Part shown: positions 7,154 to 64,000 of the stretch, piece by piece
Position numbering within the stretch: the first letter of the stretch is position 1
Layout of the letters: every line of letters begins with the position of its first letter
Assembly (NCBI GenBank): GCA_963735595.1
Contig: CAVTLK010000001.1
Coordinates: 611,591 to 675,590, forward strand
Source: an uncultured delta proteobacterium
Lineage (GTDB): Bacteria > Desulfobacterota > Zymogenia > Zymogenales > Zymogenaceae
Direction of reading: 5' to 3'
DNA: 64,000 bases
Notes under the pieces: model-generated
What the model was told of the DNA's origin: nothing
The model's input: only the letters and a program-made list of their open reading frames with translations
Databases searched by the model: none
Program-made: the position numbers and the translations under genes

Positions 7154-7185
7154 AAAGTAGTTTGCTTCTTTACGGAGAAGACAAT

Positions 7186-8709: not shown

Positions 8710-8715
8710 ATTATC

Positions 8716-18461: not shown

Positions 18462-18701
18462 TCGTTTGGCCTCCTATCCCGGGACGGCGGGGTTGGGAAC
18501 AACCCGGATTGGCTTATCCTTCCAAGGAAAGCGAAAACCGGCCTGTATCATCGGGGTATCCCGTTTCCGGCGAATTCCACTCCCTCAAGTGCTGAAGGAC
18601 TTTCGATCGGTACGTGAATCGGGGCGACCCCCGAATACAATATTGGCTCTTTGGCACGGGAGGTATACGTATTACCTCCGAATTTTTGTATCCCGGTGTG
18701 C

Positions 18702-24037: not shown

Positions 24038-24091
24038 GACTTAATCCCGTATCCTTTCGTTGCGGCGCTCTATCTATCGCCCCTCGGAATC

Positions 24092-24901: not shown

Positions 24902-25128
24902 CGATTACCCCTCCGTATTACCCGTTTTCACATACAACTAATCCTCGATCATGCTCCGTATCTTTTCCAACGAGGTTAGGCCAGCGCATACAATAAACCG
25001 GCGTCCCCATATCTACGTCATGTCAACGGCACGACGCGACAGGCCGTAAGGCCGGGGAGATCGGACGGACAGAAGCCGTTGCGTTTTCTATTTCGGTAAC
25101 AGGCCCGCCGAGAAAACGCATGCGTCGC

Positions 25129-27648: not shown

Positions 27649-27788
27649 GGCACGTTCCCTGAATTAAACGAATTAAATATCGTGTTCCATACGCGTTCTA
27701 CGGCCCGCCGTCTCCTGCCGAAGGCCCTCGTAGCACCCCCGGTCTGCTATGGATGAAGACGACCGTATTATTTCGGTTTTTTCACATA

Positions 27789-37280: not shown

Positions 37281-39684
37281 TTATCTGATCTGCACATCGA
37301 GTTTCTTCTTTAAGACATCCAGTACCCTCCCGTGAACCGCGTTTACCTCGTCGTCGGTAAGCGTCCTATCTTCCGATTGGTATCTTACCGTCAGGGCGAG
37401 GCTCTTCTTATCCTCCTGAATCTGCTTGCCCTGGTAGACATCGAAAATGGTAACGTCATTGATGAGGCTGTCGCCCGCGCCACAGATCGCCTCGATAATC
37501 TTCTTTGACGTGAGGCTTCCGCCCACGACCATCGATATATCGCGCAGAACCGATGGAAAACGGGAAACCGATCGGAACGTGAAATCCCGTGCCGCACAGC
37601 CCACCAGGGCAGATAGATCGGCTTCGAGAACATACGCGTCTCGGCCGAGGTCAAAGTTCTTCATAACCTTCGGGTCGATCCTGCCCATGTATCCGACGGG
37701 TACCTTCCCGCTCATAATGGCGCACGACTGCTCCGCGTCAAGATACGGATAGTCGTTCGTATCAGTGTATTCTATTTCCAGGAAGCCCAGCTTGTCAACC
37801 ACCGTCTCCCAGATGCCCTTGATATCGAAGAAATCGACGTCACCCGCCGGCATGCCCCATTGTCTCGGATATCGTTTCCCGGATATCAGGGCGCACACAT
37901 GTTCGTTCTCGGTGGGCAGGCCCTTTTTGTTCGGTCTGAAAACCCGCGCCGTCTCAAAGATCCGTACGTCATAGTTCAGGTAGTTGATGTTCGTGACGCA
38001 GGTCTTGATTATCGACGGTATCAAAGTCGTACGCATCGACGCCATGTCTTCGTTCATCGGGTTGGCCAGTTTAATGGCGGTACGGCGCGCGTCGCCCGCC
38101 GGGAGTTCCAGCTTCTCCAGCCAGTCGATCCCGATAAAGCTGTAGGTGATTACCTCGCTAAATCCTTCAGACAGCATGACCTCCGACACCCGCTGGGTGA
38201 GCGTGCGGATCGGCGAGCGTTCTGAATAGTCCATTCCGATTTCGGGGAGCGTCTCGGGAATCCGGTCAAAGCCCTTGAGCCGGGCGACCTCTTCGATAAG
38301 GTCTATCTCTCGCTCGAGGTCCATCCGGAACGGCGGCGGCAGGGCAGTTACCGAGTCGTCCGTCTCGGCCTGCACCTCGAGCTGGAGCCTCTTGAGGAAT
38401 TCCTTTGACTCCGTGCGTCGTAATGTCAAACCCCATGATTTTCCTGGTTCGGGGCGTTCGGATGGTCACCGGTTTGGGCAGCGGTATCGGCCCCAGGACA
38501 TCGATCATACCCCGTGCGATCACCCCGCCGGCCAGTTCGCGGACAAGCTCCGCCGCGCGGTTTGCCGCATCCACCAGGCCCACCGGGTCGACCCCCCGCT
38601 CGAAGCGGAAGGCCGCCTCGCTGGGCAGCCCCAGCTTCTTGGCGGTGCGTCTGATTGACGGTGGATGGAAATACGCGGCCTCCAGGAGTACGTCCGTGGT
38701 GTCCTCCTGAATTTCCGAGTTCGCGCCGCCCATGACGCCGGCTATGCCCACCGGCCTTTGTCCGTCGCAGATCATCAGCACGTCCTCGTTGAGCACCCGC
38801 TCGACGGCGTCCAGGGTATAGAAGGTTTCACCTTTGGCGGCACGCTTTACCACGATCCTGTGTCCCTCAAGGAGGCTGTAATCGAAGGCGTGCATGGGTT
38901 GCCCGTATTCGAGCATGACGTAGTTGGTGATATCAACGACGTTGCTGATGTCGCGCAGGTCAAGCCTCTTCAGGCGAAGGCGCATCCAGAAGGGGGACTT
39001 TCCTATCGTGATCTTCTGGACGACCCGGGCGGTATAGCGGGGGCAGAGGTCCGCATCGATAACGTCTACCGACGCGAGGGTTTTGATATCCGGCCCTTCC
39101 TCGACAATCGATATTTTCTTTTCCTTGAGCGGGACACTCGTGAGCGCCGATATCTCCCGCGCAAGACCGATGATAGAGAGGCAGTCTGCCCGATTAGGAG
39201 TCACGCCGACGTCCAGCAGCCAATCCGTGAGGTCCATCGCCTCCGTTATCGGCCTTCCGGTCGCCGCGGTCGGCTCGAGCTCCATAATCCCCGAGTGATC
39301 GGCCGTAAGCGCCATTTCGTCCTCGGCCAGCAGCACGCCGACCGACTCGACGCCGCCGAACGCGCGCTTGCCGACCTCGATACCGCCCGGAAGGCGAACG
39401 CCGGGCAGCGCGAGAGGGGCCTTAATGCCGGCCCGTATATTGGGGGCCGACGAGACGATGGTTACCGGGGATTGCCCGGTAGTAACCTGACAAACCGTGA
39501 GCCCCTCTGTCGTGGGATGGGGCCCGGCCTCGATTACTTCACCAACGAGGATCTTTTCCAATCCTTCGCCGAGCCGCTGGACAGCCTCGACCTCAAAGCC
39601 GGACATGGTCATGAGATCGGCGAGCTTATGGACCTCAAGATCAATATCGACAAAATCAGACAGCCACTGTATGGTCGCTTTCAT
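37281..39684 (-). CDS. pheT: Phenylalanine--tRNA ligase beta subunit; apparent frameshift near 38415
   Basis: TPNRADCLS, RFERGVD, REIDLIEEVARL.G, SLALTVRYQSEDRTLTD. Confidence 0.95.
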
Positions 39685-45103: not shown

Positions 45104-45271
45104 TATGTCGAGCCGTATACTATTTGTCCCGCTTTACGCGCACTCAAACCCCGGTACCGCGCACCGTACCGTGATTCCGCTTCCGTTCCAAACAAAAAAA
45201 CCTGATTATAGTTCTATCATTAAAACCGGTCGATGTCCAGCGATTTTTTATTGTATGCCTGTTACGAAAAA

Positions 45272-45298
45272 AAGGGGGGGCTACGATGCCCCCCCCTT
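45272..45298 (-). terminator. Terminator after the formate dehydrogenase gene
   Basis: G-run/C-run hairpin followed by a T-run on the minus strand. Confidence 0.75.
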
Positions 45299-45350: not shown

Positions 45351-48062
45351 CTATACCGCCGCTCTCTTTTGCTTCAGTTCGATCTTGACCGCACTGACCT
45401 TATATTCCGGAATCTTACCAATCGGATCCAGAAAGGTATTTGTCAGGACGTTGGCCGCCGCCTCCGCATAGTGGAACGGCATAAAGATCGTACCGGGCTT
45501 GACCCGGTCGGTCACCCACGCACGGACCTCAACGGAACCGCGGCGCGACGAGATGAATGCATTTTTGCCGTCGCCGACCCCGTAGGTCGTTGCATCCTTC
45601 GGGTTTATCTCGAAGAACGGGCCTTTCGATCGGAAGTTGAGACCCTCCGACCGACGGGACATCGTTCCGGTATGATACTGGTAGAGTATCCGGCCTGTCG
45701 TGAGTATCAGCGGGTATTCCTTATCGGGAAGCTCCATCGCTTCCTTGAATTCTATCGCGTTAAAGAGTCCGAGACCCCGCACGAACTTGTCCTTATGCAG
45801 GAACCGGGTACCCGGATGCTCCTCGTTGGGGCACGGCCATTGGATGCCGCCCTTCTCAATTCTGTCATAGGAGATACCCGCGTAACTGGGCGTAACCTTC
45901 CTGATCTCCTCGAAGATATCTTTCGAGGTCCGATAGTCCATCGGATAGCCCATCCGCGCGGCAATATCCGCAATAATCTTCCAATCCGGCCGCGACTCAC
46001 CGATCGGCCCCACCGCCTTGCGTACCCTCTGAACACGCCGCTCGGTGTTGGTAAAGGTACCGTCTTTCTCTGCAAAGCTGGCCGCCGGGAATACGACATC
46101 GGCAAGTTCGGTCGTCTCGTTCATGAAGATATCCTGACAGACGATAAAGTCCGCTTTCTTCAGGGATTCCCTCACGTGGGCCGTATCGGGATCGGAGACC
46201 ATGGGGTTTTCCCCCATGAAGTAGAGCGCCTTGAGTTTTCCCTCATGGACCGCATTGGTCATCTCTACGATGGTCAGACCCACCTTCTCCGACAGGGGCA
46301 TTACCGGTTTCCACGCCTCGGTGAACTTGGCACGGACCGCTTCGTCGATCACCCGCTGGTATCCGCAGAAGACGTTCGGGAGCGCACCCATATCGCAGGC
46401 GCCCTGCACGTTGTTCTGACCCCTGAGCGGATTCACGCCGCCCCCCGCTACGCCGATGTTGCCGGTGAGCATCGCCAGGTTCGCGAGCGACATAACGTTA
46501 TCGGTGCCGGTGGTATGCTGCGTAATTCCCATGGCATAGTAGACCGCCGCCGGTTTGGAGGTCGCGAAGAGCCTGGCGGCCCCGATCAGGTCCGCGGCCG
46601 GGATGCCGGATATCTTCTCGACATACTCCGGGGTATACTTTTTGACCGCCTCCTTCATCTTATCGAACCCTTCGGTTCGTCCCGCCACATACTCCCGGTC
46701 GTAGAGACCTTCCTCTATGATGACGTTCATCATCCCGTTGATCCAGGCCACGTCGGTCCCCGGACGCTGACGGAGGTGTATGGTAGCGAACTTCGCGATT
46801 TCAATGTTCCGGGGATCCACAAGGATAAGCTTTGCGCCCTTGTTGACCGCCTGTTTAAGCTTCGTGGCGATAACCGGGTGGTTCTCCGTTGTGTTGGTGC
46901 CCGTCAGGAGAAATACCGAGCTCTCCGCCGCCTCCGCGATGGAGTTTGTCATCGCCCCGCTGCCGAACGCTGTGGCAAGACCTGCCACGGTAACGCTGTG
47001 TCAGAGGCGGGCGCAGTGATCGACGTTATTCGTACCGATCACCGCGCGGGAGAACTTTTGCAGTACGTAGTTATCTTCGTTGGTGCACCGGGCCGAGGTA
47101 AACACGCCGATCGAATCCGGTCCGTGTTTGTCCCGTATTCCCTTGAGACGTGCGGCCGTATAGTCGAGCGCCTCGTCCCAGGAAGACTCCCAGAATTTCC
47201 CGTCCTTCTTGATGAGGGGTTTCGTCAGCCGCTCTGGGTGATGGATGAAGTCGTGGCCAAAGCGTCCCTTGACACAGAGGCTTCCCTGGTTCGGCTCGCC
47301 CATTTCATAGTCGGAGGTAACCTTAACTACCTTTCCGTCCTTGACGTTCAGTGTGATCTGGCAGCCGACGCCGCAGTATGAACAGGTCGTTTTGACTTTC
47401 TCAAACTCCCAGTCTCTCCCCTTGAAACGGCCCTGCTTTTCGGACAGCGCCCCCACCGGGCAAACCGAGACACATTCACCGCAGAACACGCACTCGGAGT
47501 CTTCGTAGGTCCTGCCGAAGGCGGGACCTACGGTGGCGTGTCTGCCGCGATACGAGAAATCAAGGACCTGGTTGACCTGAACCTCGTTACAGGCCCGCAC
47601 GCATCGCCCGCAGACGATACATCGATCCATGTCCCTGATGATCATCGGGTTGCCGTCCTCGATCTCAAAACCGGGCGGGTTAATCGGAAATCGGGGTTCT
47701 TCGATACCCAGCTCGTACGTCAGCTCCTGTAGGAGACACCGGCCGTTGGCCTCGCAGACCAGGCAGTTGTGTTTTCCTGAAGACAGGAGGAGCTCCGTGG
47801 CGAGCCGTCGGGCGGAGATTACCTTGTCGGAACCGGTTGTTACCTCCATGCCTTCGGTAATCGGCTGGGCGCAGGAAGCCACCAGGTTCCTGGCTCCCGC
47901 CACCTCCACCACGCATACCCGACAGGCGCCCGCGGCCTTTGCCGCCGGGTGGTAACAGAGAATCGGAATCCGGATATTGCTTTCCTTGGCAACCTCATAA
48001 ATCGTCTGGCCGGGTGCCCCGTGCACCTGCTTGCCGTCGATAGTGAGCGTTATCGTCTTCAT
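45351..48062 (-). CDS. fdhF: Selenocysteine-containing Mo/W-bisPGD formate dehydrogenase alpha subunit with NuoG-like N-terminal Fe-S domains (903 aa, Sec354)
   Basis: Two ORFs are joined in frame by TGA at 47001-47003 giving DHCARL-U-HSVTVAGL...GSGAMTNS; also RGQNNVQG, [2Fe-2S], 2x[4Fe-4S] and TTCSYCGVGC motifs. Confidence 0.95.
46972..46988 (-). promoter_or_regulatory. Bacterial SECIS element
   Basis: GTGGCA-GGTCT-TGCCAC hairpin 12 nt 3' of the in-frame UGA; resembles the E. coli fdhF SECIS (GCAGGUCUGC). Confidence 0.88.
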
Positions 48063-48138: not shown

Positions 48139-51191
<3,053 letters not shown>

Positions 51192-51256: not shown

Positions 51257-51640
51257 TTACTTTACTATTTCCGCACCTTTGGCTAGGACAAAGGGAGTCT
51301 GTATCTCGCCTTTCACGATATGGCGCTTAAATACCTGACGCATTTTATTGGGATTCATATATTCGTATTTGATCGGTTCATTCCCGATTACTTCGACGGT
51401 CACCAGCGGCTCCCGGCTGCACAATCCCATGCATCCCGAGGTAGTCACTGCGACGTCCGAAACGCTGTCCTCGGCCATGACGTTCATGAGCGCCTCCAGC
51501 ACTTCTCGGGCGCCGGACGCGATACCGCACGTCCCCATGTGTACGGTGACTTTTACCCGCGCACCCCCCTCTCGCAGCGCCGTATCGGTATGAACCTTGT
51601 CCTTGATCTTCTTCAGATCTTCTATCGTCAACTTTGACAT
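51257..51640 (-). CDS. Thioredoxin-like [2Fe-2S] ferredoxin (HydD/HndB-like)
   Basis: VHMGTCGIASGAR...TSGCMGLCSREP. Confidence 0.88.
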   Translation of the reverse strand: MSKLTIEDLKKIKDKVHTDTALREGGARVKVTVHMGTCGIASGAREVLEALMNVMAEDSVSDVAVTTSGCMGLCSREPLVTVEVIGNEPIKYEYMNPNKMRQVFKRHIVKGEIQTPFVLAKGAEIVK

Positions 51641-51667: not shown

Positions 51668-52165
51668 TTATTTATAGTGGCTCAGAACCTCCGCCAACAT
51701 AGCCGGCTTCATCCTTCCATGCACCTCTTCGTCAACAACCACAACCGGCCCCAGTCCGCAGGCTCCGAGGCACCGCACCGACTCCAGAGAGAACATGCGG
51801 TCGGCCGTCGTCTCGCCTTCGCTAATCCCGAGGCTGCGTTTGAGCGTCTCCGCGATGGCCCTGCCCCCCCGAACGTAACAGGCGGTACCGAGACATACCC
51901 GGCAGGTATGCTTGCCGCGCGGTACCATGGTGAAGAAGGAATAAAAGGTCACCACCCCAAAGACCTGTGCCCGCGGAACCCCGAGGCCTTCGGCAATAAG
52001 CTCCTGGATTGAGACGGGCAGAAAACCGAGAACGCCCTGGACTTCTTCAAGAACCGGGATAAGCCCTCCGGGCTTACCCTTAAAACGCTTGATTATTTCG
52101 TCAACTTCCTTGAGTTGTCCCGGGGTAAATTCCTTGGCTATATCAACGTCCGGCAGTTTCTTCAT
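51668..52165 (-). CDS. NuoE/HydC-like [2Fe-2S] subunit
   Basis: GLIPVLEEVQ, VVTFYSFF, VCLGTACYVRG, VRCLGACGLGP. Confidence 0.93.
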   Translation of the reverse strand: MKKLPDVDIAKEFTPGQLKEVDEIIKRFKGKPGGLIPVLEEVQGVLGFLPVSIQELIAEGLGVPRAQVFGVVTFYSFFTMVPRGKHTCRVCLGTACYVRGGRAIAETLKRSLGISEGETTADRMFSLESVRCLGACGLGPVVVVDEEVHGRMKPAMLAEVLSHYK

Positions 52166-52207: not shown

Positions 52208-52757
52208 TTATGCTGTCGCTCCTAACTCCCTGGTTCCTTCCTCGATATCACCCCTGATGAGTGAGAGTACTTCCACGTGTTCGATAGGGACGTCATCGAG
52301 TTCGCACTTAATTGCTCGCGTATCCAGCCGGTATTCCCGGCCGTCTTTCCTATGGGTGTAGACGAAATCAACGTGCGGGCTTCCCGCGATAAGGCTGATG
52401 ATCGTCAGGGCCACATCACCGAGAGGCTGCCGATCGATATTCGAATGCCCGAACGTTACGGTAACCGTGGTGCCCTGCCCCTGTATCGAATCCAGCTTGA
52501 AGCTCCCATCGGCCAGCTCCGCGGCCAGCTTCAGCATGGGAAGGCCCAGACCCACGCGTCGCACCTTCTTTGGTCGTATAGAAGGGATCGAGCGCCTTTT
52601 CCCGTTCGTCGTCGCTCATCCCCTTTCCGTCATCGCTTATCTGAAGCGTGAGCGTATCGGCCTTCGTATCCTCGACAACGGTGATCATTACCGTCCGGCA
52701 TCCGGCACGTATCGAGTTTTCCGCGATATCGAGGATATGTTTCGAAAGTTCCAGCAT
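52208..52757 (-). CDS. Stand-alone HATPase_c (histidine-kinase-like ATPase, no HisKA); apparent frameshift near 52565
   Basis: HILDIAENSIRAG, ISDDGKGM, DPFYTTK/RRVGLGLP, SNIDRQPLGD. Confidence 0.85.
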
Positions 52758-52760
52758 TGC

Positions 52761-53503
52761 TCATTCGATAACGCATCGCCCCTCGGAGTACGCTATGGCC
52801 AGTTTCACCTCTTCAAACGTCGCCTCGGCCAGCCTCATCGTGGTTGCTGCCGAGCCGATATCGGAAAGGCAATGGGCGTCCGACGACGCGATAAAGGGAT
52901 AATGCGACAGATCCGGATATCGTTTCCGCGCCTGTGCGTACCCCAAGTGCCCGGGAGATCTCCAATGCGTCAAGGCCGCTGTCGTTATCTACAAATCCCA
53001 GCTGACTGATGACCGAAAAACTCTCCCGGTCTATATGCGACGCAATGGCAAGCCCCCCAAAGGAATGAATGATCCCGATCAAATCGCTCATCGGGATTTC
53101 GGTCGCCCCGATGAGAAGGCGCTCATTGATCCGTTCCACCTCTCCCTTTTCATTCACGACGGCCTGGCACCCAAAGAGGCGCTCGTCATTTCGGCCCGGG
53201 AGACGGTCATAGACGATCTGTCTGTATTTCCGGCGAGGCTCGTCAAGTACCCGGCAAGAGCGCCAGTATATGAACCTCCTCGCTCGTGGTGATCTCCATT
53301 CCCGGGATAATTCTAAGCGGCTCACGCTCGGCCGCCCGTATTACGTACCGAACGTTTTCGGCGGTGTTGTGGTCGCATATCGCAATCACATCGAGCCCCC
53401 TGGCTACCGCGCCACGGACAAGCGCCGCCGGATGCATATCGAGGTCGGCGCAGGGTGAAAGGCACGTGTGAATATGAAGATCACAGCGATACTCCCTGAA
53501 CAT
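52761..53503 (-). CDS. PHP domain phosphoesterase; apparent frameshifts near 53270 and 52960
   Basis: DLHIHTCLSPC, IAICDHN, GMEITTSEEVHIL, IASHIDRESFS, SSDAH. Confidence 0.88.
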
Positions 53504-53626
53504 GCTCACGACCCCGAAACCTGACCGAACGGCACAACCATCGAGATGCCCCGCCCCGGTGACGGTCCTGTTTCTTTTGCGCATCAGGAAAGGAGCTATG
53601 CCACCGTCGGTTCGGCAAGAAGAACC

Positions 53627-53972
53627 TTATTCTTCTCGCGCCGCAATGAGTTGATATATCCTTGCCGGCTGTCTCAAAGCAGGGAAGCTTCGAAACCATA
53701 ACCGGGACGTTCTCCTGCACCGCCTTTTCGAGCGTTTCCCGGGCCGGTTCGTTATTGTCAACCAGGATGATCCCGGCAAGGTCCTTAAGCGTCGCAACGG
53801 CGACGATATTCTGATGTACCTGGCGCGTAACCCAGATATCTCCCTGCTTACTGTTGGCGATCACGTCAGACAGGAGGTCGCCGACATAGCCGCCGTTGAC
53901 TTCAACCGTGAGATTCTGCGCTCCCGACCTGACCACCAGGTTGAGATTTTTAACGATAGAACCGAGTTCCAT
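53627..53972 (-). CDS. DRTGG/HPr-kinase-N-like domain protein; indel near 53660
   Basis: GGYVGDLLSDVIA...DIWVT.Q.HQNIVAVA.LKDLAGIIL; restored end IYQLIAAREE-TAA. Confidence 0.8.
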
Positions 53973-53991
53973 TTCTCAGCCCGCCTTATCG

Positions 53992-54448
53992 TTATGAAGC
54001 ATCGGTGATATCGACGACCATCACCAGCCTGGTTCCCTTTCCGACCTCCGAGGTAATATCGAAGTCGTCAGCGTATCGGTCAATATTCACCCAGCCCCAT
54101 CCCCGCGCCGAAACCCATCTCCCGTATCTTGGCCGTCGAGGTGCTGTACCCCGCCTGCCTGGCCAGGTCGATGTCGGGGATACCTTCCCCCTCGTCGACC
54201 ACCTCGATGACAACGTGATCCTCGTCCACCGACAGCGTGATATCACCCCGCCGGGCATAACAGACGATGTTCATCTCCGCCTCAAAGGTGCAGATGGCGG
54301 CCTTCCGAATCACGTCGAGGGGCAGACACATCTTCTTCAGTATGCCCTTGATGCGGCTCGAAACCTTGCCCGCGTCATCGAAGTCGCCGCCGGCGACCGA
54401 AAAGGTGTCCGAAAAGGACGGTTTTCTATCCGCGTTTTTTTCCGGCAT
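53992..54448 (-). CDS. RsbT-like anti-sigma regulatory factor (Ser/Thr kinase, HATPase_c_2); indel near 54100
   Basis: GGDFDDAGKVSS, TFEAEMNIVCYA, DEGEGIPDI..A..GYST, GFGAGMGL, SEVGKGT. Confidence 0.88.
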
Positions 54449-54800
54449 CTACCTTATCCACGCAGCCGACGATCCCCCATCTGTAGAGCCGTCCCGCAGT
54501 TTCGAAGAGGATGTACCGCGTCATGAGGATGGGTATCTTCAGTTCCTCGGCAAGTTTGACGGTCTCCGGAGGCGGTACCTTACCCCGGACGATGATGATG
54601 GCGGCGATATCGAGGATCTCGGACGTGCGGATCACCTGCGGATTCGTCAGGCCGGTTAACAAGCATGGTGCCCGGTCGGGCGAACGCGAGCACATCGCTC
54701 ATCAGGTCAGCGCCGAAGGCGGTATCACCTCCTTTTGCATCTGATCCTGTCCGACGACTACTTCGGCATCGAGTATCTGTCGTACCTCGCTAAGTTTCAC
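54426..54800 (-). CDS. DRTGG domain protein; several indels
   Basis: Manual reconstruction gives MKLSEVRQILDAEVVVG...AFGADLMSDVLAFARPGTMLLTGLTNPQVIRTSEILDIAAIIIVRGK. Confidence 0.8.
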
Positions 54801-54916: not shown

Positions 54917-56345
54917 CTATCTCGTCGCTATTTCTTTTTTTCCGTTCATCACGTAGGCGTGCATGGCCTGCGCGGCTTTCCTTCCGGCGCCCATCGCCAG
55001 GATGACGGTGGCGGCGCCGGTAACGATATCGCCGCCGGCATAGACGCCCTCCCGCGAGGTCAGGCCGGTCTCTTCGTCGGCGACGATGTTGCCCTTCCTC
55101 CCGGTATCGAGCCCCGGGGTCGTTGCGGGCACGAGCGGATTCGGGCTGTTACCGATGGCCACCACGACCGTATCCACCGGGTATCCTGAATTCGGACCCC
55201 TTGATCGGAACGGGTCGCCGTCTGCCGGAATCGTCGGGCTCACCCAGTTCCTGTTTCTGGCACTCGATCTCCCTGACCCAGTTGTTTTCGTCACCGATGA
55301 ACGCTATCGGGTTGGTAAGAATGTGGAACTGAATCCCTTCATCCTTCGGCGTGGTGGACTTCTTCTTTTCTGGCCGGCATTTCTTCGAGCGAGCGCCGAT
55401 ATATAATATACGCGTTGTCCGCCCCAAGCCTCAGCGCCGTCCGCGCGCTGTCCATGGCGACGTTGCCGCCGCCGATGACCGCCACGTTCTTGCCCAGCAC
55501 GATGGGTGTATCGTATTTAGGGAAGAGATACGCCTTCATGAGGTTGGAGCGGGTGAGATACTCGTTTGCCGAGTAGACCCCGTTGAGGTTTTCGCCGGGA
55601 ACGCCCAGAAAGAGCGGGAAGCCCCGCCCCGGTGCCCAGGAATACGGCATCGTACTCGGACAAGAATCGTATCTACCGTCCGGATTTTGCCAATGACATA
55701 GTTGGTGACGAACTTCACCCCCATCTTCTTGAGATAGTCCGACCTCGGCCTCGACGATCGCCTTCGGCAGACGGAACTCGGGGATACCGTAGACGAGCAC
55801 TCCTCCCGGTCTTGTGGAGGGCCTCAAAGACGGTGACGTCGTGGCCCAGGAGCCTGAGGGTGCCGGCCACCGTCAGCCCCGCGGGGCCCGATCCCACCAC
55901 GGCGATCTTCTTGCCGGTGGAAACGGCGATCTTCGGCACCTCGACCTTTCCGGCGTTTCGCTCGTAGTCGGCGGCAAATCTCTCCAGACGCCCGATGGCC
56001 ACCGGATCGCCCTTTTTGGCCAGAACGCACTTCACCTCGCACTGCTCCTCCTGGGGACAGACCCTCCCGCAGACGGCCGGCAGCGCGTTGGTCTCCTTGA
56101 TCTTTTTGGCCGCGCCGATGAAATCCCCGGTCTCGATCATCGAGATAAATCCGGGTATATCGATTTCGACCGGACAGCCGGCAACGCAGCTCGGCTTTCT
56201 TGCACTTCAGGCAGCGTTGCGCCTCGCGTATCGCGGTCTCTTCACTATACCCAAACGGGACCTCATTGAAGTTTTTGCCGCGAACCTTGGGATCCTGTTC
56301 CGGCATTTTTTGCCGGGGAATTTGCATACGCTCTTTGGCTTCCAT
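54917..56345 (-). CDS. nfnB: NfnB / NADPH-dependent GltD-like large subunit; multiple indels
   Basis: RGKNFNEV, EAQRCLKC, NALPAVCGRVCPQEEQCE, GSGPAGL, YGIPEFRLPK, GGGNVAMD, GGDIVTGAATVILAMGAG. Confidence 0.88.
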
Positions 56346-56354
56346 GGTTATCCT

Positions 56355-57192
56355 CTATTTCTTGAGCGCCTGATTGAGAAAGCAATCCAGGGATTCGTGT
56401 TCCTGTTTCATGTAGGTCTTCTGACGCATCATCAGCTCTTTGAAATCCACCTGATGCCCGTCAAATTCCGGCCCTTCCACACAGGCGAACTTGGACTTAC
56501 CGTCGACCGAAACGCGGCACCCTCCGCACATGCCGGTGGCGTCAACCATGATGGAGTTCAGCGATACGACGGTATGGATTTTGTAGGGCCGCGTCACCTC
56601 GCTGACGGCCCGCATCATTACGACCGGGCCGATGGCCACCACGATATCGATCTTTTCCCCGGATTTAATAATCTCCTCGAGTGCCTGGGTAACGAACCCC
56701 TTCTGCCCGTAGGTCCCGTCATCGGTCATGACGATAAGCCGATCGGAGACCTTCTTCATCTCCTCTTCGAGGATAAGGAGGTCCTTGGTTCGGGAGCCGA
56801 TGATGGTGATGACCTTGTTACCCGCCTTCTTGAGCGCCTCGGTAATCGGATACATGGGCGCTACCCCCACGCCCCCGCCAACACAGACTACGGTCCCGAA
56901 CTTTTCTATGTGGGTGGGCCTGCCGAGGGGACCGGCGAGGTCAAGGATGTTGTCACCCTGGTTCATCGTCCCGAGGAGTTTCGTGGATTTGCCGACTTCC
57001 TGAAAGATAATGGTAACGGTGCCCGCCTTTGGGTCGGCGTCCGCGATGGTCAGGGGAATTCGCTCCCCCTGCTTCGTTGATACGAAGCACGATAAACTGT
57101 CCGGCCTTGCGCGCCTCGGCGATCTCACGGGCTTCGAGAACCATCTTGACAACGTCGGCCGACAGCCGTTCTTTTTTCACAATCTTTGCCAC
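56355..57192 (-). CDS. nfnA: NfnA / PyrK-like small subunit (FAD, [2Fe-2S]); indel near 57075
   Basis: AGQFIVLR, GERIPLTIAD, GPLG, GGGVG, AIGPVVMM, MVDATGMCGGCRV...ACVEGPEFD. Confidence 0.9.
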
Positions 57193-57440
57193 TTCAGGCT
57201 CGCTCCTTTATCACATGGTATATAGTGCGTCGTGTCGATCGTTTTTTCGCAAAATTAAGGACGCCGTCCCGGAGAACCGCTTCGATAAATTCCTGATCAC
57301 ACATAGATATCCGGCGTCCTGATTCATACCGCTATCGGCTGGACTTCCGGGGCCGGCCTGTTTGGCCGGCCCCGTATCCTTACCAATCTGTTACGTACAT
57401 AATCAGATTCTTACTGAAAAAACTTCGCGCCGCTACGCCG

Positions 57441-58688
57441 TTACGCCTTCTTGGGCGCGGGAGCCTTATAAGGAGCGCGAGCAGGAATCCGACGACGAGA
57501 AACGCCGCCGCTATGTACAGGGCCACACCCTTGAACTGGGCAAAGACCCACGGGCCGATGATTCCGGCGGTTGCCCACGCGGTCAGCATGAATCCGTAGA
57601 CCCTGCCGATGTAGGTCGGTCCGAACGAGTCTGCCGCAAACGCGGGCATCGTCGCGAATCCGCCGCCGTAGCAGGCCAGCAGGTAGCAGGCGATGACGGT
57701 AAACAGCACCGCAGCCACCGACCTTCGGAAGCAGGATGTAGAGGACGGCCTGCGTGGCGAACATGATCATGAACACGGCCTTGCGCCCGATCGTGTCCGA
57801 TATCCACGCCCAGAAGAGCCTGCCGAGGCCGTTGAAGATCGACGCGATGGAAAGGATCGTTCCGCCGGCGACCGCCAGCGCGGCCGCAAGCTTGACGGGA
57901 TCGGTCTTCTGTCATCGGTCTTTTTCAGCACTTCCTGCGCCATCGGGCGACAGCTGTGAGATAAGGCCCAGGCCCGCCGATACGTTCAGGAAGAGCATGC
58001 CCCAGAGCATCCACCATTGCGGGCTTTTTCTGAGCCTCAGCCGCGGTAAATGAACCGGCGGCCGACGTTGCCGTCTTGGACGGGGTGAATCCCTTCGGCA
58101 GCCATCCCTGGGGCGGGTTCTTATAGAACGAAGCCGCACCGACACAGAGGACCAGGAAGATCGCGCCAAGGATGTACCACGTATTGGCGACACCCATTTT
58201 GAGGATCATCACCGGGGCAAGCTTGCCGATAAAAAAGGCACCCCCGCCATAGCCCATAACGGCAAGGCCGGTCACCAGGCCGCGCTTATCCGGAAACCAT
58301 CGAATAAGCGTGGCTATCGGCGTTACATACGCGGCGCCACCACCCATACCGGCGAATAAGCCAAAGCCGATATAGAGGAGGACTATGCTTCCGACGGAAT
58401 CGGCTAGACCTGCCATCATCGTGCCGATACCGAACAGGATAGCACCGATGGTCGCCACGAAACGGGGACCTTTTTTGTCAAGAATACTGCCGCCGAACGC
58501 TGCCGAAAGGCCGGTAAACGCCATCGGATCATAAAGGTAACCTGCACCCCGACCTCTTCCCAGCCGTGTGCTTCCATGAGCGGTTTCTTGAAGACCGACC
58601 ATGCGTAGACGGAGCCGAGGCAGAGCTGCATCACGATCGCCGCAACGGCTATCCACCAGCGCTTCATTTCTAAATTTTCTTTACTCAT
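57441..58688 (-). CDS. OFA-family (oxalate/formate antiporter, OxlT-like) MFS transporter; multiple indels
   Basis: CLGSVYAWSVF, GPRFVA, YVTPIATLIRWFPDKRGLVTGLAVMGYGGGA, YGGGFATMPAFAAD.FG....GRVYG.MLTAW. Confidence 0.88.
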
Positions 58689-59217: not shown

Positions 59218-61527
59218 TCATTCCGGGGATATACCGGCCTTCACCCTGCCGCCTGCCGTAACCGCCTGCCCCAGGGCAATCCCGCCGTCGTTGGTTGGCA
59301 CGCGGCGGTGAGTCAGTACCTCAAGCCGCGCCTTTTCGAGCGAATCGATCACGCCGGCCAGGAGCAGCCTGTTCTGAAAGCATCCGCCGCTCAGCGCCAC
59401 CCGGCCGATCCCCGTTGTCTCGGCGATTTCTTTTACCGTCTGAACGATCCCGGCAATCAGCGTCGCGTGAAACGCCGCCGCCAGGTCCTGACGGGAGATA
59501 CCGGCATCCATTCCCTCGACGATTGCGCGAATCGTACCGGACAGGTCCAGGACGACCGTATCGTCCTTCAGTATGACTTCGAATGGGAGGATATCCGCGG
59601 CCCCTGCCGCAGCACACGCCTCAAGCTCCATCGCGGCCTGCCCTTCGTAGCTCACGCTTCTCTTCAATCCAAGGATTGCCGCTACTCCGTCAAATACCCG
59701 GCCCATGCTTGTGGTTACGGGGCTGTTGATATCCCGGTCTACCATTCGCATGAACGCCCCTTTCGCGGCGCATTCCGGCACCAATCCAAGCCGCTCGGCA
59801 ATACCCTGCCACCGGCTTCCATACGCGGTCTTTACGAGGCTTGCTCCCGTCCGCCACGGCTCACGGATAGCCGCCTCTCCTCCCGGAAGGGTAAAGGGGG
59901 CCAGGTGTCCCGCCCGTTTGAACCCAACCCGGTCCGCGATGAGCCATTCTCCGCCCCAGATTGTCCCGTCCGTGCCGTAGCCGGTCCCATCCAGCGCCAC
60001 CCCGATTACCGTGTCCGATACCCCGTTTTCCGCCATGCAGGATACGATATGGGCGTGGTGGTGCTGGACCATGTGAACGATCGCCCCCTTCATACGCCGA
60101 GCCGCATCGGTCGTGAAATAGCCCGGGTGAAGATCGCAGGCGACGACCTTCGGCCCGCATTCGGTTATTCGCTGCATGAGCGCGACGGTCTCGTAGAAAA
60201 AGCCGCGCGCGCCGGGCGTATCCATGTCGCCGATATAGGGGCTCATGAAGGCCAGGTTCCCTTTCAGGATGCACACGGTTGACTTCAGGTGCCCCCCGAC
60301 GGCCAGAACCTCGGGATACGATTCGGCAAGGACGATCGGCCCGGGGACGTACCCCCGTGACCGGCGCAGTATCGCCGGCCGCTCCCCCACCACCATCGCG
60401 ATCGAATCGTCGCACCGAACGACGATCTCCCGGTCGTGGACAAGGAAGAAGTCGGCTATATCCGAGAGACTCGCCAGCGCGTCCTCGTTCCCGATGGCAA
60501 TCGGCTCTCCGGAGCGGTTCCCGCTCGTCATGACCAGGGGCGGCATGTCGGAATCAAAAAGGAGGTGCTGCAACGGGGTGTAGGGCAGCATAACGCCGAA
60601 AGTTCCCATCCCCGGGGCAACGGACTGCGCGACGATAGTCTTTTCGGTGCGTGGCATAAGAACAATCGGCCGCCTGGCCGACGTCAAGAGCGCTTGTTCT
60701 TCGGGCGTAATCTCGACAATCCGGCGGGCCTCCCGGAGATCCCTGACCATGAGCGCGAACGGCTTTTCTTCTCGAAGCTTGCGCCGCCTGAGCCGCAGGA
60801 CCGCTTCGTCATCGGTCGCGTCGACGGCCAGGTGAAATCCCCCGACACCCCGGATCGCCATGATCGAGCCGGAACGCAACAAGCGCGCCGCCTCGCCCAC
60901 TGGATCGCCCGTGTCAACGGGCACGCCGTCGCCCGTCAGCAGCAGCACCTTCGGCCCGCAACGGGCGCAGGCGTTCGGCTGGGCGTGGAACCGCCGGCTT
61001 GCGGGATCCTCGTATTCGCTCCTGCAGTCCGGACAGAGATCAAATGCAGCCATCGAGGTCTTTTCCCGGTCATAGGGGATATCTTGAATGATGGTCAGAC
61101 GGGGGCCGCAGTCGGTACAGTTGATGAATGGATAATGGTAGCGGCGATCGCCGGGGTCAAAGAGCTCCTCGACGCACCGGTCGCACGTCGCGATGTCGGG
61201 GGGGATGTGCAGGGCCGATTGCCCGGTCCTGCGGCTCGCTATGATGCGAAACTCGTCGGCCCCGACCGTCGGGATCGTTTCTTTTACGAGAGCCGGTGAT
61301 CTCGGCCAGCGGCGGGAGTTCCGTTTCGGACGGCGGAAAAGAAGGATGATACCGAAGGGGGTTGTCCTTCCAGCTCCACGACAACGCCGTCCGACGTGTT
61401 CTTTACGAACCCCGCCAGTCCGAAGCGTACGGCGTATCCGATAGATAAAGGGACGAAAGCCCACTCCCTGCACCGTGCCGGAGAACAGGGACCTCACGCG
61501 AATACGATCGTCCGAATTGGTTAACAA
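59218..61527 (-). CDS. hypF: Carbamoyltransferase HypF (compensated indels in the N-terminal acylphosphatase domain)
   Basis: GTVQGVGFRPF, CTDCGPR, RFHAQPNAC, GGFHLAVDA, VQHHHAH, DGTGYG, GGCFQN, NDGGIALGQA. Confidence 0.93.
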   Translation of the reverse strand: MLTNSDDRIRVRSLFSGTVQGVGFRPFIYRIRRTLRTGGVRKEHVGRRCRGAGRTTPFGIILLFRRPKRNSRRWPRSPALVKETIPTVGADEFRIIASRRTGQSALHIPPDIATCDRCVEELFDPGDRRYHYPFINCTDCGPRLTIIQDIPYDREKTSMAAFDLCPDCRSEYEDPASRRFHAQPNACARCGPKVLLLTGDGVPVDTGDPVGEAARLLRSGSIMAIRGVGGFHLAVDATDDEAVLRLRRRKLREEKPFALMVRDLREARRIVEITPEEQALLTSARRPIVLMPRTEKTIVAQSVAPGMGTFGVMLPYTPLQHLLFDSDMPPLVMTSGNRSGEPIAIGNEDALASLSDIADFFLVHDREIVVRCDDSIAMVVGERPAILRRSRGYVPGPIVLAESYPEVLAVGGHLKSTVCILKGNLAFMSPYIGDMDTPGARGFFYETVALMQRITECGPKVVACDLHPGYFTTDAARRMKGAIVHMVQHHHAHIVSCMAENGVSDTVIGVALDGTGYGTDGTIWGGEWLIADRVGFKRAGHLAPFTLPGGEAAIREPWRTGASLVKTAYGSRWQGIAERLGLVPECAAKGAFMRMVDRDINSPVTTSMGRVFDGVAAILGLKRSVSYEGQAAMELEACAAAGAADILPFEVILKDDTVVLDLSGTIRAIVEGMDAGISRQDLAAAFHATLIAGIVQTVKEIAETTGIGRVALSGGCFQNRLLLAGVIDSLEKARLEVLTHRRVPTNDGGIALGQAVTAGGRVKAGISPE

Positions 61528-61534
61528 GCATCCA

Positions 61535-62636
61535 TCATTGGTACTTGTAATAGGCCGCGCAGGTTCCCTCCGCCGAGACCATGCAGGGGCCGAGGGGGTT
61601 TCGAGGGAAGCACGCCGAGCCGAAACCGCGGACATTCGGGTGGCGAGATGATCCCCTTGAGCACGTCTCCGCAGCGGCAGCCCGGCGTATCGTGAGACTC
61701 AACGGCCGGGATGTCAAATCGCATCGACGCGTCAAATCCCCGATACTCCTTACGAAAGCCAAGGCCGCTTTTCGGTATCATCCCGAGGCCCCGCCAGATG
61801 CGAGTCGGCCAGCTCGAAGACCTCGTATGAGGATCCTGCGGGCCGCCGCTATTGCCCTCTTCCTTGACGCGCGCGCCGATACTGAATCTCGGTCTTTACG
61901 TCTCCCGGAGATGATCTGTTCCAGGATCATCAGATCCCTTCGAGGATGTCCACCGGCTCAAAACCGGTGATCACTCCCGCCCGGCCGCTTTCGGGCGATG
62001 ATGCGAATAGGCGGCCGTCCCGAGGATCGTGCTCACGTGCCCGGGAAGCATGAAACCGTCCACGGAGATCAGGGGATCGGAAAGGAGTGCATCGATTGCC
62101 GGGGGGATAACTTTATGAACGGAAAACACCGCGAGATTGGAAATGGAGCATGACACTGGCGGTCTTGACGACCGACGCCGCCGCCGGCGACGTCGTCTCG
62201 AATCCGATCCCCATGAAGACGATCTGCCGGTCCGGGATTGTTTTTGCGCCAGCGTCCAGACACTCCACCGCGGAATCGACGACCCTGACGTCCGCACCGT
62301 CGGCCCGCTCCTTTTCCAGCGACCGCCGTTCCGGTGCCGGGCACCCGGAGCATGTCGCCGAAGGAGGCAAATATGACGCCGGGCTGACGGGCCAGGAACA
62401 GCGCCGCGTCGACGTCCTGCACGGCAGGTCACGCAGACCGGACAGCCGGGTCCCGAAATAAGCCGGATGTTTTCGGGGAGCAGTCCCCGTATGCCGAAAC
62501 GGCCGATGGCGTTGGTGTGGCTTCCGCAGACCTCCATAATGGTGATCGACCGGGTTAGCCGTCCCGCCCGTTTTCTGACTGCGGCCAGAAGCCCGTTAAA
62601 AAGCTTCGGGTCCCGATACTCGTCAATAAACTTCAT
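61535..62636 (-). CDS. hypD: Hydrogenase maturation protein HypD; multiple indels
   Basis: MEVCGSHT, GPGCPVCVT, GIGFETT, GFMLPGHVSTI, GCRCGDVLKG..SP.EC..FG..C.P.NP.GPCMVSAEGTCAAYY. Confidence 0.92.
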
Positions 62637-62850
62637 GTTCGGTAAGCTCCCGAAGCAGCGCAAGCTTCTCCCTGGCGAGCTCCTCATCGACCTTATGAAT
62701 CGCGAAGCCCGCGTGACAGATGACGTAATCCCCGATCGTGACCTCTTCATCGATCAGGTCCAGAAAGGCCTCGCGCCGAGTCCCTTCGATATCGATAATC
62801 GCCCGATTATCGTCGATGGAGATGATTTTCCCGGGAAATGCAATGCACAT
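62623..62850 (-). CDS. hypC: Hydrogenase chaperone HypC
   Basis: MCIAFPGKI...GDYVICHAGFAI. Confidence 0.95.
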   Translation of the reverse strand: MCIAFPGKIISIDDNRAIIDIEGTRREAFLDLIDEEVTIGDYVICHAGFAIHKVDEELAREKLALLRELTEHEVY

Positions 62851-62852
62851 TG

Positions 62853-63210
62853 CTACTCCTCTTGTTCCACTTCCATTTCGATGAGCTTCAGGTCTTCCGT
62901 GCCCCCTACCAGAAGCACCGAAGGATCACCGCATGAGGGGCACGATGAGTATCCCCTGATAGTCGATGTCATATTCCTTCCGACAGGAAGACACGAAATG
63001 ACGACCGGAGTGATCTCGAAGGAAAGAACGGCCCCTTCGGCCCGGGTTCCCCGGGCCATCGCCTCAAACGCCGTCTCCAGGGCGTCCGGCTGGATGCACG
63101 ACATCCTGCCGAACGAAAGCGTGATCCTGTCCGACTTTTGCCGCGTTGTTTTTTTCGGCGTGTTCAAGGGCGATCTCAAGGACCGACTGCGCCAGGCTCA
63201 GTTCGTGCAT
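62853..63210 (-). CDS. hypA: Hydrogenase nickel metallochaperone HypA; indel near 63140
   Basis: MHELSLAQS (manual translation), FEAMARGT.AEGA.L, CPSCG...GG.EDLKLIEMEVE. Confidence 0.9.
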
Positions 63211-63707
63211 TCCGGCCTCCTGACGGGTTTTACCGAGAGGGCCGCCAACTCCTCCAGCAGCAACCGCTCAATATCCGAAAATCGCTCGACCAACAGATCC
63301 GAAATCCTTACTTCCATTGTATCATATTTCTCCGGCACGACGGTGATAAAAGTAACCGGCGGGCATTGATCCAAAAGATCGGCCATGGCAAGGACGTCCA
63401 GGAACTCCACCTCGTGGGCCGACGTGGGTGCGTGGCAGATAGAGCGACATCTCTTCTTTCGTGAATCGGTATAGTGAGCCCGGCGTATCGTCGATCCTGA
63501 TCGCATCGATGACGATGAGATGCCCGGCGCCGGTGACGATATCCAGGAGACCCAGGCCCGCCGTCCCCCCGTCCACCAGCGAGACGGTATCCGGCAGTAT
63601 ATACCGATCCGAAAACCAGGCGATAAATCGGACCCCGAATCCGTCGTCCCCGACGAGGAGGTTGCCGAGTCCCAGTATGGTGATAGTTTTGTTTTGTTCA
63701 TCGGCAT
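63198..63707 (-). CDS. Hydrogenase maturation protease (HyaD/HupD family); indels
   Basis: ILGLGNLLVGDDGFGV, VDGGTAG, IVIDAI, SAHEV. Confidence 0.88.
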   Translation of the reverse strand: MPMNKTKLSPYWDSATSSSGTTDSGSDLSPGFRIGIYCRIPSRWWTGGRRAWVSWISSPAPGISSSSMRSGSTIRRAHYTDSRKKRCRSICHAPTSAHEVEFLDVLAMADLLDQCPPVTFITVVPEKYDTMEVRISDLLVERFSDIERLLLEELAALSVKPVRRPECTN

Positions 63708-63826
63708 GTACGTAAAAAGACAAGGTCGCATAATAACAAAGTCCTCGCCGAAAAGCGAGGACTTTGCGAGATTTGTGAGGGGAGAGGATCCTTCTCCCCT
63801 CTCATTTCTTGAACAGGCGAGCCGAT

Positions 63827-64000
63827 TCAGTGCTCTTTGGCCTTAAAGACCATGCCGTTTATCATCGAGGAGACGGTGCCTTCCTTGAAGACGATGTCGT
63901 ACCAGAAGGCCATATAAATGTGCACGATGATAAACAGGACAAAGAGCCAGGTCAGGATATGGTGGACGTAGCGCACCATCGCCAGCCCCCCCATGCAGAC
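63827..64000 (-). CDS. [NiFe]-hydrogenase b-type cytochrome subunit, C-terminal end (truncated by window edge)
   Basis: Manual translation: GGLAMVRYVHHILTWLFVLFIIVHIYMAFWYDIVFKEGTVSSMINGMVFKAKEH-stop; HyaC-type HH..W...F...H.Y and SSMI.G motifs. Confidence 0.85.
   Translation of the reverse strand, partial: VCMGGLAMVRYVHHILTWLFVLFIIVHIYMAFWYDIVFKEGTVSSMINGMVFKAKEH

Follow-up and report, generated by a model that had tools for sequence, protein, structure and literature searches.

A two-module DRTGG, kinase and PHP cassette upstream of a NuoF-linked formate dehydrogenase: a candidate Ser-phosphorylation switch of Bfu/HydABC-type enzymes

What is the task of five small genes, encoding two DRTGG proteins, a small GHKL kinase, a PHP phosphoesterase and a second ATPase, that directly precede the genes of a formate dehydrogenase (FDH)? 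The question is raised by a stretch of 64,000 nucleotides (nt) from an uncultured delta proteobacterium of the Zymogenaceae (contig CAVTLK010000001.1 of assembly GCA_963735595.1, positions 611,591 to 675,590), hereafter called the window, in which the five genes occupy positions 52208-54800. A preliminary description of this DNA had proposed a portable partner-switching system that regulates or assembles HydABC-type flavoenzymes, with a Ser of the DRTGG proteins as phosphoacceptor. A survey of related loci bears out the portability, as the cassette accompanies NuoE/NuoF-type enzymes whatever their catalytic subunit (HydA, FdhA, BfuA, or none adjacent). The cassette is likely to be a regulatory or accessory module of Bfu enzymes. 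That it is a genuine accessory signalling cassette of a Bfu/HydABC-type flavin/Fe-S oxidoreductase, working by the mechanism proposed below, is given a probability of about 0.4. Bifurcating hydrogenases and FDHs set the H2/formate and NAD(P)H/ferredoxin balance in fermenters, syntrophs and acetogens, and the physiological role of the 'sensory' hydrogenases has been described as unclear (PMC10055695, PMC5037454).

Between 45 and 57 kb of the window, every gene lies on the minus strand. In six-frame translation, the cassette consists of five co-directional genes spanning exactly 52208-54800, from the GTG start of DRTGG-1 at 54800, preceded by GAGGT, to the stop of the last gene at 52208. In order of transcription they are:

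54426..54800, minus strand: DRTGG-1, 124 amino acids (aa), GTG start, Pfam DRTGG at 42.3 bits (cut-off 25.2)
53992..54448, minus strand: SpoIIAB/RsbW/RsbT-like GHKL kinase, 151 aa, Pfam HATPase_c_2 (35.6 bits, cut-off 27.4) and HATPase_c above cut-off
53627..53972, minus strand: DRTGG-2, a paralog of DRTGG-1, 114 aa, Pfam DRTGG at 26.4 bits (cut-off 25.2)
52761..53503, minus strand: PHP-family metallophosphoesterase, 245 aa, Pfam PHP and PHP_C
52208..52757, minus strand: second HATPase, 182 aa, known as 'HisK' in work on HydABC, Pfam HATPase_c at 61.9 bits, also HATPase_c_3

After frameshift repair, all five match Pfam above the gathering cut-offs, and the proposed layout of five small genes directly upstream of the NuoE, ferredoxin, NuoF and FDH genes is confirmed. 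DRTGG-1 and the kinase gene overlap by 23 nt, and the successive intergenic gaps from DRTGG-1 to NuoE are -23, 20, about 120, 3 and 42 nt. Downstream follow the genes for NuoE, a 2Fe-2S ferredoxin, a NuoF-GltD fusion and FdhA, with gaps of 27-76 nt, and no terminator comparable in strength to the one at the operon end (45298-45271) was found inside the operon. The same synteny is intact in relatives and in dozens of genomes spanning several phyla, which places the arrangement far beyond chance. As the preliminary description had stated, the cassette has no STAS, sigma factor, HisKA or REC partner. None of these genes lies within about 19 kb, and the only HisKA and REC genes of the window are those of hybrid kinases and receivers clustered between 17 and 33 kb. 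Its statement that a hydrogenase-like sensor is lacking here also held. A motif scan of all six frames of the 64 kb window found neither an [FeFe] H-cluster nor a [NiFe] large-subunit motif, and no sensor remnant, the gap between kinase and DRTGG-2 being only 20 nt.

Is the cassette intact in this organism? In the window, each of its five genes holds one to five single-base indels: two frameshifts in DRTGG-1 (at about 54724 and 54660), one each in the kinase gene (about 54088), DRTGG-2 (about 53661) and the second HATPase (about 52568), and five 1-nt insertions in the PHP gene (53247-53218 and 52936). Ten to twelve frameshifts within 2.6 kb, unevenly spread along the window and missing from the NuoE, ferredoxin and FdhA genes, might be taken for real indels in a decaying pseudogene array, a worry that the preliminary description had itself voiced. 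The indel spectrum argues otherwise. Compared with L003, a metagenome contig of the Joint Genome Institute (JGI) that is the closest public relative (93.6% identical over 18 kb; surveyed loci carry L numbers), there are 98 gap openings; 71 of them insert a single nucleotide into the window sequence outside homopolymers, in over half of these cases C or G. This is an error signature, opposite to bacterial deletion bias. The same patches disrupt nfnB, an MFS gene, hypD and the start of hypF, and the essential pheT is also broken, split into two overlapping frames. Once the indels are removed, an internal stop is left only in the MFS gene among the 13 protein-coding genes compared, and the repaired cassette genes, all free of stops, show a dN/dS of 0.05-0.16, the same range as their intact neighbours. 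The relatives at 84-94% nucleotide identity all keep the five genes intact in identical synteny, with lengths of 124, 151, 114, 245-247 and 182 aa in L003, L001 and L009, followed by proteins of 165, 127 and 1016 aa and then by FdhA. Since the pattern is dominated by insertions, patchy and hits an essential gene, and since the genes are under purifying selection, the frameshifts are ascribed to assembly or long-read error; pseudogenisation deserves next to no credence, and the cassette, which is very probably real and intact, was treated as functional.

The patchy insertions look like the trace of a locally unpolished or gap-filled assembly, and they make frameshift-aware handling necessary for gene calls in the window. 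The broken stretches are 37281-39684 (pheT), 48139-49402, 54917-56345 (nfnB-like), 57380-58656 (MFS) and 61296-62750 (hypD and the start of hypF), and the clean ones include FdhA, most of hypF and a 1792-aa kinase.

How widely does the cassette occur, and with which enzymes? Homologs of its kinase are numerous, with 1353 close ones in 90% clusters and 1432 representatives at 50% identity, and a pattern scan with one genome per species found a kinase relative in at least 596 genomes. By seed searches and motif tests, 80 of these genome loci and 9 metagenome loci were annotated, and 68 genome loci could be evaluated. The common gene order is DRTGG1, kinase, sensor, DRTGG2, PHP, (NuoE), HATPase, ferredoxin, NuoF and a BfuA-type subunit. 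DRTGG2 and PHP follow the kinase in 56 of the 68 evaluable loci, and the sensor is present in 49. About 41 combine sensor, DRTGG2 and PHP and about 14 hold a complete cassette without sensor; the rest comprise one CBS-kinase fusion in place of the sensor, nine loci with DRTGG1, kinase and sensor only, and three bare DRTGG1-kinase pairs amid unrelated genes. The sensor is a protein of 420-470 aa with two [4Fe-4S] motifs, a divergent H-domain and PF04060, and 55 of 57 sequences carry a C-terminal Cx2Cx4Cx16C motif. This is the architecture of Tam HydS, a putative sensory hydrogenase of M2e/group D, and the Cx2Cx4Cx16C motif has been described for M2e/M2f sensory hydrogenases (PMC8163306). No PAS domain was found in the fused kinase-sensor examples scanned.

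The cassette follows the NuoE/NuoF core rather than a hydrogenase. NuoF-type genes lie nearby in 42 of the 45 DRTGG2- and PHP-containing loci that have at least 8.5 kb of downstream sequence. The catalytic partner varies: HydA with H-cluster motifs (24 open reading frames, ORFs), FdhA (L001, L003, L005, L009, L030, L033, L040, L054, L062, L075, L082 and L086), a BfuA-like protein of roughly 585 aa without H-cluster in Acidobacteriota and others, or nothing recognisable after NuoF-GltD in seven Syntrophales-type loci; in L038 and L088, NiFe large subunits lie nearby. Neighbour-joining analysis of the kinases groups the window and its relatives with almost all of the sensor-less NuoF-GltD loci in a single clade, and the few other sensor-less cases are scattered. 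Within this clade, L011 has a hydrogenase-like gene 5 kb upstream, outside the cassette. Sensor-containing cassettes also stand beside FdhA-type (molybdopterin) subunits in L030, L033, L040 and L082, where a protein resembling an H2 sensor is paired with an FDH and not with HydA.

The preliminary description had called the kinase RsbT-like, and the identification is sound at the level of the SpoIIAB/RsbW/RsbT family. The ATP site is intact, and conservation across phyla is at least 95% in the N-box (E56/E58/N60), G1 (D85xGxG) and G2 (GFGAGMG). Among solved structures, SpoIIAB (1til), a Ser kinase and anti-sigma factor, comes closest, and P0001, an intact ortholog, shares 93% identity. In NCBIfam, spIIAB and RsbW score best; because both equivalog cut-offs are missed, membership is assigned at family level only. 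Among the top 150 representatives, 53 kinases are stand-alone, about 50 are fused to HydS and 29 to a CBS pair at the N-terminal side, and rarer architectures are DRTGG1-kinase (9), DRTGG1-CBS-kinase (1) and kinase-DRTGG2 (1). These natural fusions constitute Rosetta-stone evidence that the kinase has both DRTGG proteins and an input domain as physical partners. The odd architectures scanned contained fusions to CBS, DRTGG and HydS only.

The resemblance to SpoIIAB and RsbW invites another explanation, namely that the kinase sequesters a transcription factor encoded elsewhere, as these anti-sigma factors do, with the DRTGG proteins as anti-anti-factors, so that operon expression rather than enzyme activity is controlled. 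Classical sensor kinases do neighbour L054, L079, L080 and L007. However, no sigma factor or DNA-binding gene is conserved in or beside the cassette across the inspected loci, no DNA-binding or other output domain is fused to any of the 150 representative kinases, and a search for the Rex operator TTGTGA-N6-TCACAA with up to 3 mismatches gave 16 matches against 15.1 expected, none of them upstream of the cassette. Such a transcriptional circuit is very unlikely, and the lack of a conserved or fused DNA-binding or sigma component favours post-translational control.

The two DRTGG proteins are the candidate substrates of the kinase. The D-L-(L/M)-S-D-V motif previously noticed in both proved to be effectively invariant across the paralogs. 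It reads GADLMSDV in DRTGG-1 (D32-L-M-S35-D-V, with T49, R72 and K74 besides) and VGDLLSDV in DRTGG-2 (D32-L-L-S35-D-V, with W47, T49 and N55). S35 is present in 84 of 84 DRTGG1 and 71 of 71 DRTGG2 sequences and is never Thr, T49 is likewise invariant, and D32, L33, (M/L)34, D36 and V37 are essentially so in both paralogs. DRTGG1 alone also keeps N53, Q55, R58, T59, R72, G73 and K74, the R72/K74 pair being missing from DRTGG2. DRTGG1 is unusually conserved, with at least 68% identity among the best 120 of 4180 matches; its intact ortholog P0391 is 95% identical to DRTGG-1, and DRTGG-2 has orthologs intact at 114 aa in L001, L003 and L009.

Both proteins belong to the DRTGG domain family (PF07085) by hidden Markov model score, and the structure model shows the fold. 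At the literal 'DRTGG' loop, one protein has LTGLTNPQ and the other VTRQVHQN. Direct sequence searches of the PDB with both gave only marginal matches (2ioj, E 0.18), and fold searches on AlphaFold2 (AF2) models were used for that reason. The AF2 model of DRTGG-1 (pLDDT 88) matches the DRTGG structure 2ioj with a TM of 0.74 in Foldseek, and also the insert of CBS-pyrophosphatase (3l31 and 3l2b, TM about 0.7) and the N-terminal domains of HprK/P and MurE/F. In this model, S35 is the second residue of helix 34-40, right after strand 27-31. The aligned 2ioj lacks the D-L-(M/L)-S-D-V motif, which is therefore specific to the cassette. A STAS-like fold was also considered and rejected, as Foldseek of the AF2 model gave no STAS match. 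JGI labels the cassette DRTGG1 proteins (P0391 and relatives) 'predicted transcriptional regulator'; no DNA-binding domain is detectable in them, and the label is probably a propagated misannotation.

The fourth and fifth genes encode a metalloenzyme and an ATPase. In the PHP protein, the metal ligands H10, H12, D44/H45, E70, H78, H155, D207 and H209 are all present and at least 95% conserved among 63 sequences. The second HATPase combines a GHKL ATP-binding domain with an 80-aa C-terminal alpha/beta domain: conserved ATP-binding motifs are followed by a D108-x2-P-x-G linker and an alpha-beta-beta-alpha-alpha domain (AF2 pLDDT 89.8). Foldseek aligned the model over its full length (about 190 columns, TMq 0.53) with TopoVI-B and MutL, and GRP94 was also matched, whereas the CA domains of histidine kinases align with only the first 100 or so residues. 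The model contains no DHp helices or His box, so that 'HisK' is probably a misnomer, and Pfam HisKA matches neither HATPase protein of the cassette. The gene often lies between those for NuoE and ferredoxin, in many Bacillota, stays with the divergently transcribed structural operon in L077, and is fused to PHP in three Acidobacteriota loci (L019, L020 and L026). On these positions and fusions, the 'five-gene cassette' is better regarded as a switch module A plus an ATPase, module B, that belongs to the enzyme genes.

An ATPase of this type could also be a maturation factor. In that case the ATPase(s), the DRTGG proteins and PHP would not be regulators and would load flavin mononucleotide (FMN) and Fe-S cofactors or assemble and repair the NuoE/NuoF core. 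The full-length alignment with the clamp- and chaperone-type ATPases and the embedding of the gene between NuoE and ferredoxin fit this explanation, and the authors who studied the NiFe-HydABCSL enzyme assumed a role of HisK 'in maturation and/or regulation', with no co-purification of HisK with the enzyme (PMC8880783, PMC9304861). On the other side, the kinase is fused or adjacent to sensory domains (HydS-like and CBS), which points to signalling, and orphan DRTGG1-kinase pairs occur far from Bfu genes. In addition, assembly proceeds without the full cassette for many characterised HydABC enzymes. A maturation role for the whole set is quite unlikely.

Comparison of the loci establishes a conserved, co-transcribed cassette under selection, its tie to the NuoE/NuoF core, input domains on the kinase that can be exchanged, ATP and metal sites that look fit for catalysis, and the invariant Ser of both DRTGG paralogs. 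The mechanism proposed for the cassette is that of a phospho-switch. Module A comprises DRTGG1, kinase, DRTGG2 and PHP; in most bacteria the kinase has, in the same chain or next door, an M2e/group D HydS-like [FeFe] sensor or a CBS pair. Module B is the GHL-like ATPase ('HisK') travelling with the structural genes. The kinase would bind both DRTGG proteins in an ATP-dependent manner and phosphorylate Ser35 at the N-terminus of the short helix, and the PHP metalloenzyme would reset the state of the switch. The phosphorylation or partner state would then control the NuoE/ferredoxin/NuoF core post-translationally, possibly through the module B ATPase. In the clade of the window, the H2/redox input domain would have been lost, and with its dedicated input domain gone the switch would have to read another cue, for instance the state of the adenylates or pyridine nucleotides, or direct contact with its enzyme. 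The analogy is with the spoIIAA-spoIIAB and rsbR/S/T/X systems, to which the cassette is likened for its upstream overlapping partner gene and the Ser at a helix N-terminus. A kinase-acceptor pair with a resetting enzyme is supported by the kinship with SpoIIAB, the intact ATP site, the overlap with DRTGG1, the invariance of Ser35, the conserved PHP ligands and the PHP-HATPase fusions. Phosphorylation of the DRTGG proteins on Ser in particular is held as a tentative proposal, with odds short of even.

Several observations weigh against such a phospho-switch. No output component emerged from the operon or the inspected loci. The DRTGG fold is not that of STAS. S35 shows no Ser-to-Thr variation at all and clusters with D32, D36, T49, N53, R72 and K74 in loops after strands; judged from the model, this conserved cluster is equally plausible as a phosphate or ligand pocket. 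The nearest solved relatives of the PHP protein are a PHP phosphoesterase (9etk) and RNase AM (7ug9), in NCBIfam it matches pAp phosphatase, RNase RNM and the N-terminal PHP part of TrlF, enzymes of TrpH/RNase AM type, and no protein phosphatase match emerged from the profile and structure searches. The fifth gene product looks, from its model, like an ATPase of the GHL type, and its gene goes with the structural genes and not with the switch. In L015-L017 and L023, DRTGG1-kinase pairs stand alone, DRTGG2, PHP, HATPase and Bfu genes all being missing from the 10 kb around them, which indicates that the dyad can work in other contexts; these orphan pairs come from Syntrophorhabdaceae and other deltaproteobacterial metagenome-assembled genomes. 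Finally, only the 80 loci closest to the query were surveyed, and this biases the proportions.

The principal rival draws on the same observations. In a switch that senses a nucleotide or another ligand without protein phosphorylation, a phosphorylated small molecule (an adenine nucleotide, an Ap4A-type dinucleotide or a pyridine nucleotide) would occupy the D32/S35/T49/N53/R72/K74 pocket, the GHKL protein would be an ATP-dependent binding partner, and PHP would hydrolyse the ligand. The nucleotide phosphoesterases among the closest relatives of PHP agree with this idea, as do the conserved residues at strand C-termini and helix N-termini, reminiscent of Rossmann-like phosphate sites, and the fusion of 29 of the 150 representative kinases to nucleotide-binding CBS pairs. 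Moreover, CBS with DRTGG forms the adenylate- and Ap4A-regulated insert of family II pyrophosphatases, and the enzymes devoid of DRTGG ignore ApnA (PMC7705103). In CBS-pyrophosphatase, however, the nucleotides bind to the CBS domains and not to DRTGG (PMC7705103). DRTGG2 does not have the R72/K74 pair, and the kinase retains the catalytic Glu/Asn and both G-boxes of SpoIIAB-type kinases. A pure ligand switch is accordingly unlikely but a serious competitor, and a portable phospho-switch that acts on the DRTGG proteins stays plausible overall: portability, the invariant candidate Ser and the kinase-DRTGG fusions stand. What does not stand is the claim of an 'undescribed system', which was overstated, as kinase genes beside sensory and bifurcating hydrogenases and the 'HisK' of HydABC operons had been noted before (PMC3561251, PMC8163306, PMC8880783, PMC5037454).

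To which known systems is the cassette then related? The closest are the clusters of HydS (M2e/group D, 'C1 histidine kinase-linked' in HydDB), in which a putative sensory [FeFe]-hydrogenase and a kinase gene lie upstream of a bifurcating HydABC. Land et al. reported a kinase-like ATPase flanking Tam HydS (PMC8163306), and the role of the HydDB C1 group has been called 'undetermined' (PMC5037454). These clusters share with the window the kinase family, DRTGG1, DRTGG2, PHP, the HisK-like ATPase and the adjacency to NuoE/NuoF, and the synteny DRTGG1-kinase-DRTGG2-PHP-HATPase beside NuoE/NuoF is indeed found here. By contrast, the clade of the window has no sensor gene, with DRTGG-2 starting 20 nt after the kinase, and in the window the partner is FdhA instead of HydA and NuoF is fused to GltD. 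In the literature searched, no link of DRTGG with these hydrogenase or FDH operons and no function was reported, and the hfsABCD papers present a regulatory phenotype without describing these domains. The neighbourhood itself was thus noticed earlier and left uncharacterised; new is the sensor-less, FDH-linked form with NuoF-GltD. The present analysis adds that the kinase beside HydS belongs to a fixed cassette of five or six genes, among them those for two DRTGG proteins and PHP, that a whole clade runs this cassette on FDH without an H2 sensor, and that Ser35 is a precise candidate acceptor residue.

With SpoIIAA/SpoIIAB, RsbV/RsbW and RsbR/RsbS/RsbT/RsbX, the cassette has in common a small SpoIIAB-like GHKL kinase, an upstream overlapping gene for an alpha/beta partner, two paralogous partners (compare RsbR and RsbS) whose invariant Ser stands at the N-terminus of a helix, and a dedicated phosphoesterase gene downstream (compare RsbX). 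Unlike the partner switches of Bacillota, it uses DRTGG instead of STAS and PHP, its only phosphoesterase, instead of PP2C, and it has no sigma factor, RsbU-type protein or other defined output; no STAS family appeared in the Pfam annotation of the relatives' loci, 10 kb either side. Nor is it a two-component system, as HisKA and DHp are missing and no REC or HisKA gene lies closer than 19 kb. The cassette therefore falls outside both STAS partner switching and two-component systems, and plausibly works like the former. That it represents a new class of Ser-phosphorylation partner switches, with DRTGG acceptors in place of STAS, PHP in place of PP2C and interchangeable inputs (a HydS-like H2 sensor, a CBS pair or none), which would gate the activity of flavin-based electron-bifurcating Bfu/HydABC enzymes, FDHs among them, directly and at the level of the protein, is a speculative and rather doubtful proposition.

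The fifth gene is the counterpart of the 'HisK' of HydABC and NiFe-HydABCSL operons, located next to or between NuoE and ferredoxin; Anamo_16xx, Cthe_0339 and TTE0891 are examples. Its product differs from what this name implies in having no DHp or His box and in aligning full length with GHL ATPases. The HisK gene product was not part of the purified enzyme (PMC8880783, PMC9304861, PMC3990059), and Feng/Schut et al. treated it in NiFe-HydABCSL operons as non-structural, with maturation or regulation 'assumed' (PMC8880783, PMC9304861). The CBS-DRTGG insert of family II inorganic pyrophosphatases shares the DRTGG fold, and since fusions of the cassette kinase to CBS pairs are frequent, the pairing of CBS with DRTGG recurs. 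In contrast to that insert, the cassette DRTGG proteins are stand-alone, have their own D-L-(M/L)-S-D-V motif and are paired with a GHKL kinase.

The enzyme genes downstream of the cassette, and the end of the operon, are:

51668..52165, minus strand: NuoE/HydC-like [2Fe-2S] subunit (BfuC), intact, Pfam 2Fe-2S_thioredx at 4.8e-49
51257..51640, minus strand: small [2Fe-2S] ferredoxin-like protein (HydD-type), intact, weak match to Pfam 2Fe-2S_thioredx
48139..51191, minus strand: NuoF/HydB (FMN, Fe-S) fused to a GltD-like NAD(P)H-binding flavoprotein, from Pfam and NCBIfam
45351..48062, minus strand: FdhA, formate dehydrogenase alpha subunit with a NuoG-like Fe-S N-terminus, TIGR01591 at 892 bits (cut-off 666)
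45271..45298, minus strand: intrinsic terminator-like hairpin with an 11-bp stem, 8 GC pairs and a T-run, at the operon end

By Pfam and NCBIfam, this is a Bfu/HydABC-type set of NuoE-, NuoF- and NuoG-like Fe-S subunits with FdhA as catalytic module. FdhA, in which no indels were found, contains the molybdopterin module and an in-frame selenocysteine TGA at 47001-47003 (context HCARL-U-HS), and the enzyme is a selenocysteine-containing FDH, probably linked to NAD(P)H and ferredoxin. NuoF-GltD carries 1-nt insertions at 49325 and 49205 in the window, its intact orthologs being 1016 aa long; it scores 504 bits with the NCBIfam nuoF_fam model, under the cut-off of 558.65 bits, and also matches NAD(P)-binding/GltD families. 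The synteny of the ferredoxin-like gene is kept in nearly all surveyed loci. Bfu-family FDHs, of which Schut et al. listed 82 Fdh-type clusters (PMC9304861), have the same NuoE-NuoF core and the NuoG-like Fe-S N-terminus on FdhA. The C-terminal GltD-like NAD(P)H module on NuoF and the five-gene cassette preceding the operon set the window apart from the other Bfu FDHs.

In relatives, the trio of NuoE, ferredoxin and NuoF/GltD occurs with FdhA, with HydA (L011 and L028) or with no adjacent catalytic subunit, and loci with this trio include L007, L010, L013, L014, L032, L042 and L043. This suggests a modular NADPH-linked Bfu core, possibly a transhydrogenase when alone. Directly upstream of the cassette and in the same orientation, an NfnAB-like pair (54917-57192) has NAD_binding_1 and DHODB_Fe-S_bind in one gene and Fer4_20 and Pyr_redox_2 in the other; it is kept at this place in L001, L003 and L009 and not in L005 or L007.

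Elsewhere in the window, two ORFs at 7147-8097 (316 aa) and 8386-9753 (455 aa), which have no Pfam match at E<=1e-5, lie beside genes for PMT-family glycosyltransferases. At the other end, positions 59218-64000 hold [NiFe]-hydrogenase maturation genes (hypF, hypD, hypC, hypA-like and the hycI protease) and the end of a Ni_hydr_CYTB-type gene, with no hydrogenase large subunit inside the window. A signalling block at 17139-33167 is not linked to the cassette, from which it is separated by more than 19 kb with pheST and thrS in between. It encodes a 1792-aa multi-PAS HisKA-HATPase-REC hybrid kinase, an 839-aa PAS hybrid kinase, a 1264-aa PAS-HisKA-HATPase-3xREC-Hpt protein, a DUF4388-REC protein and two further REC proteins.

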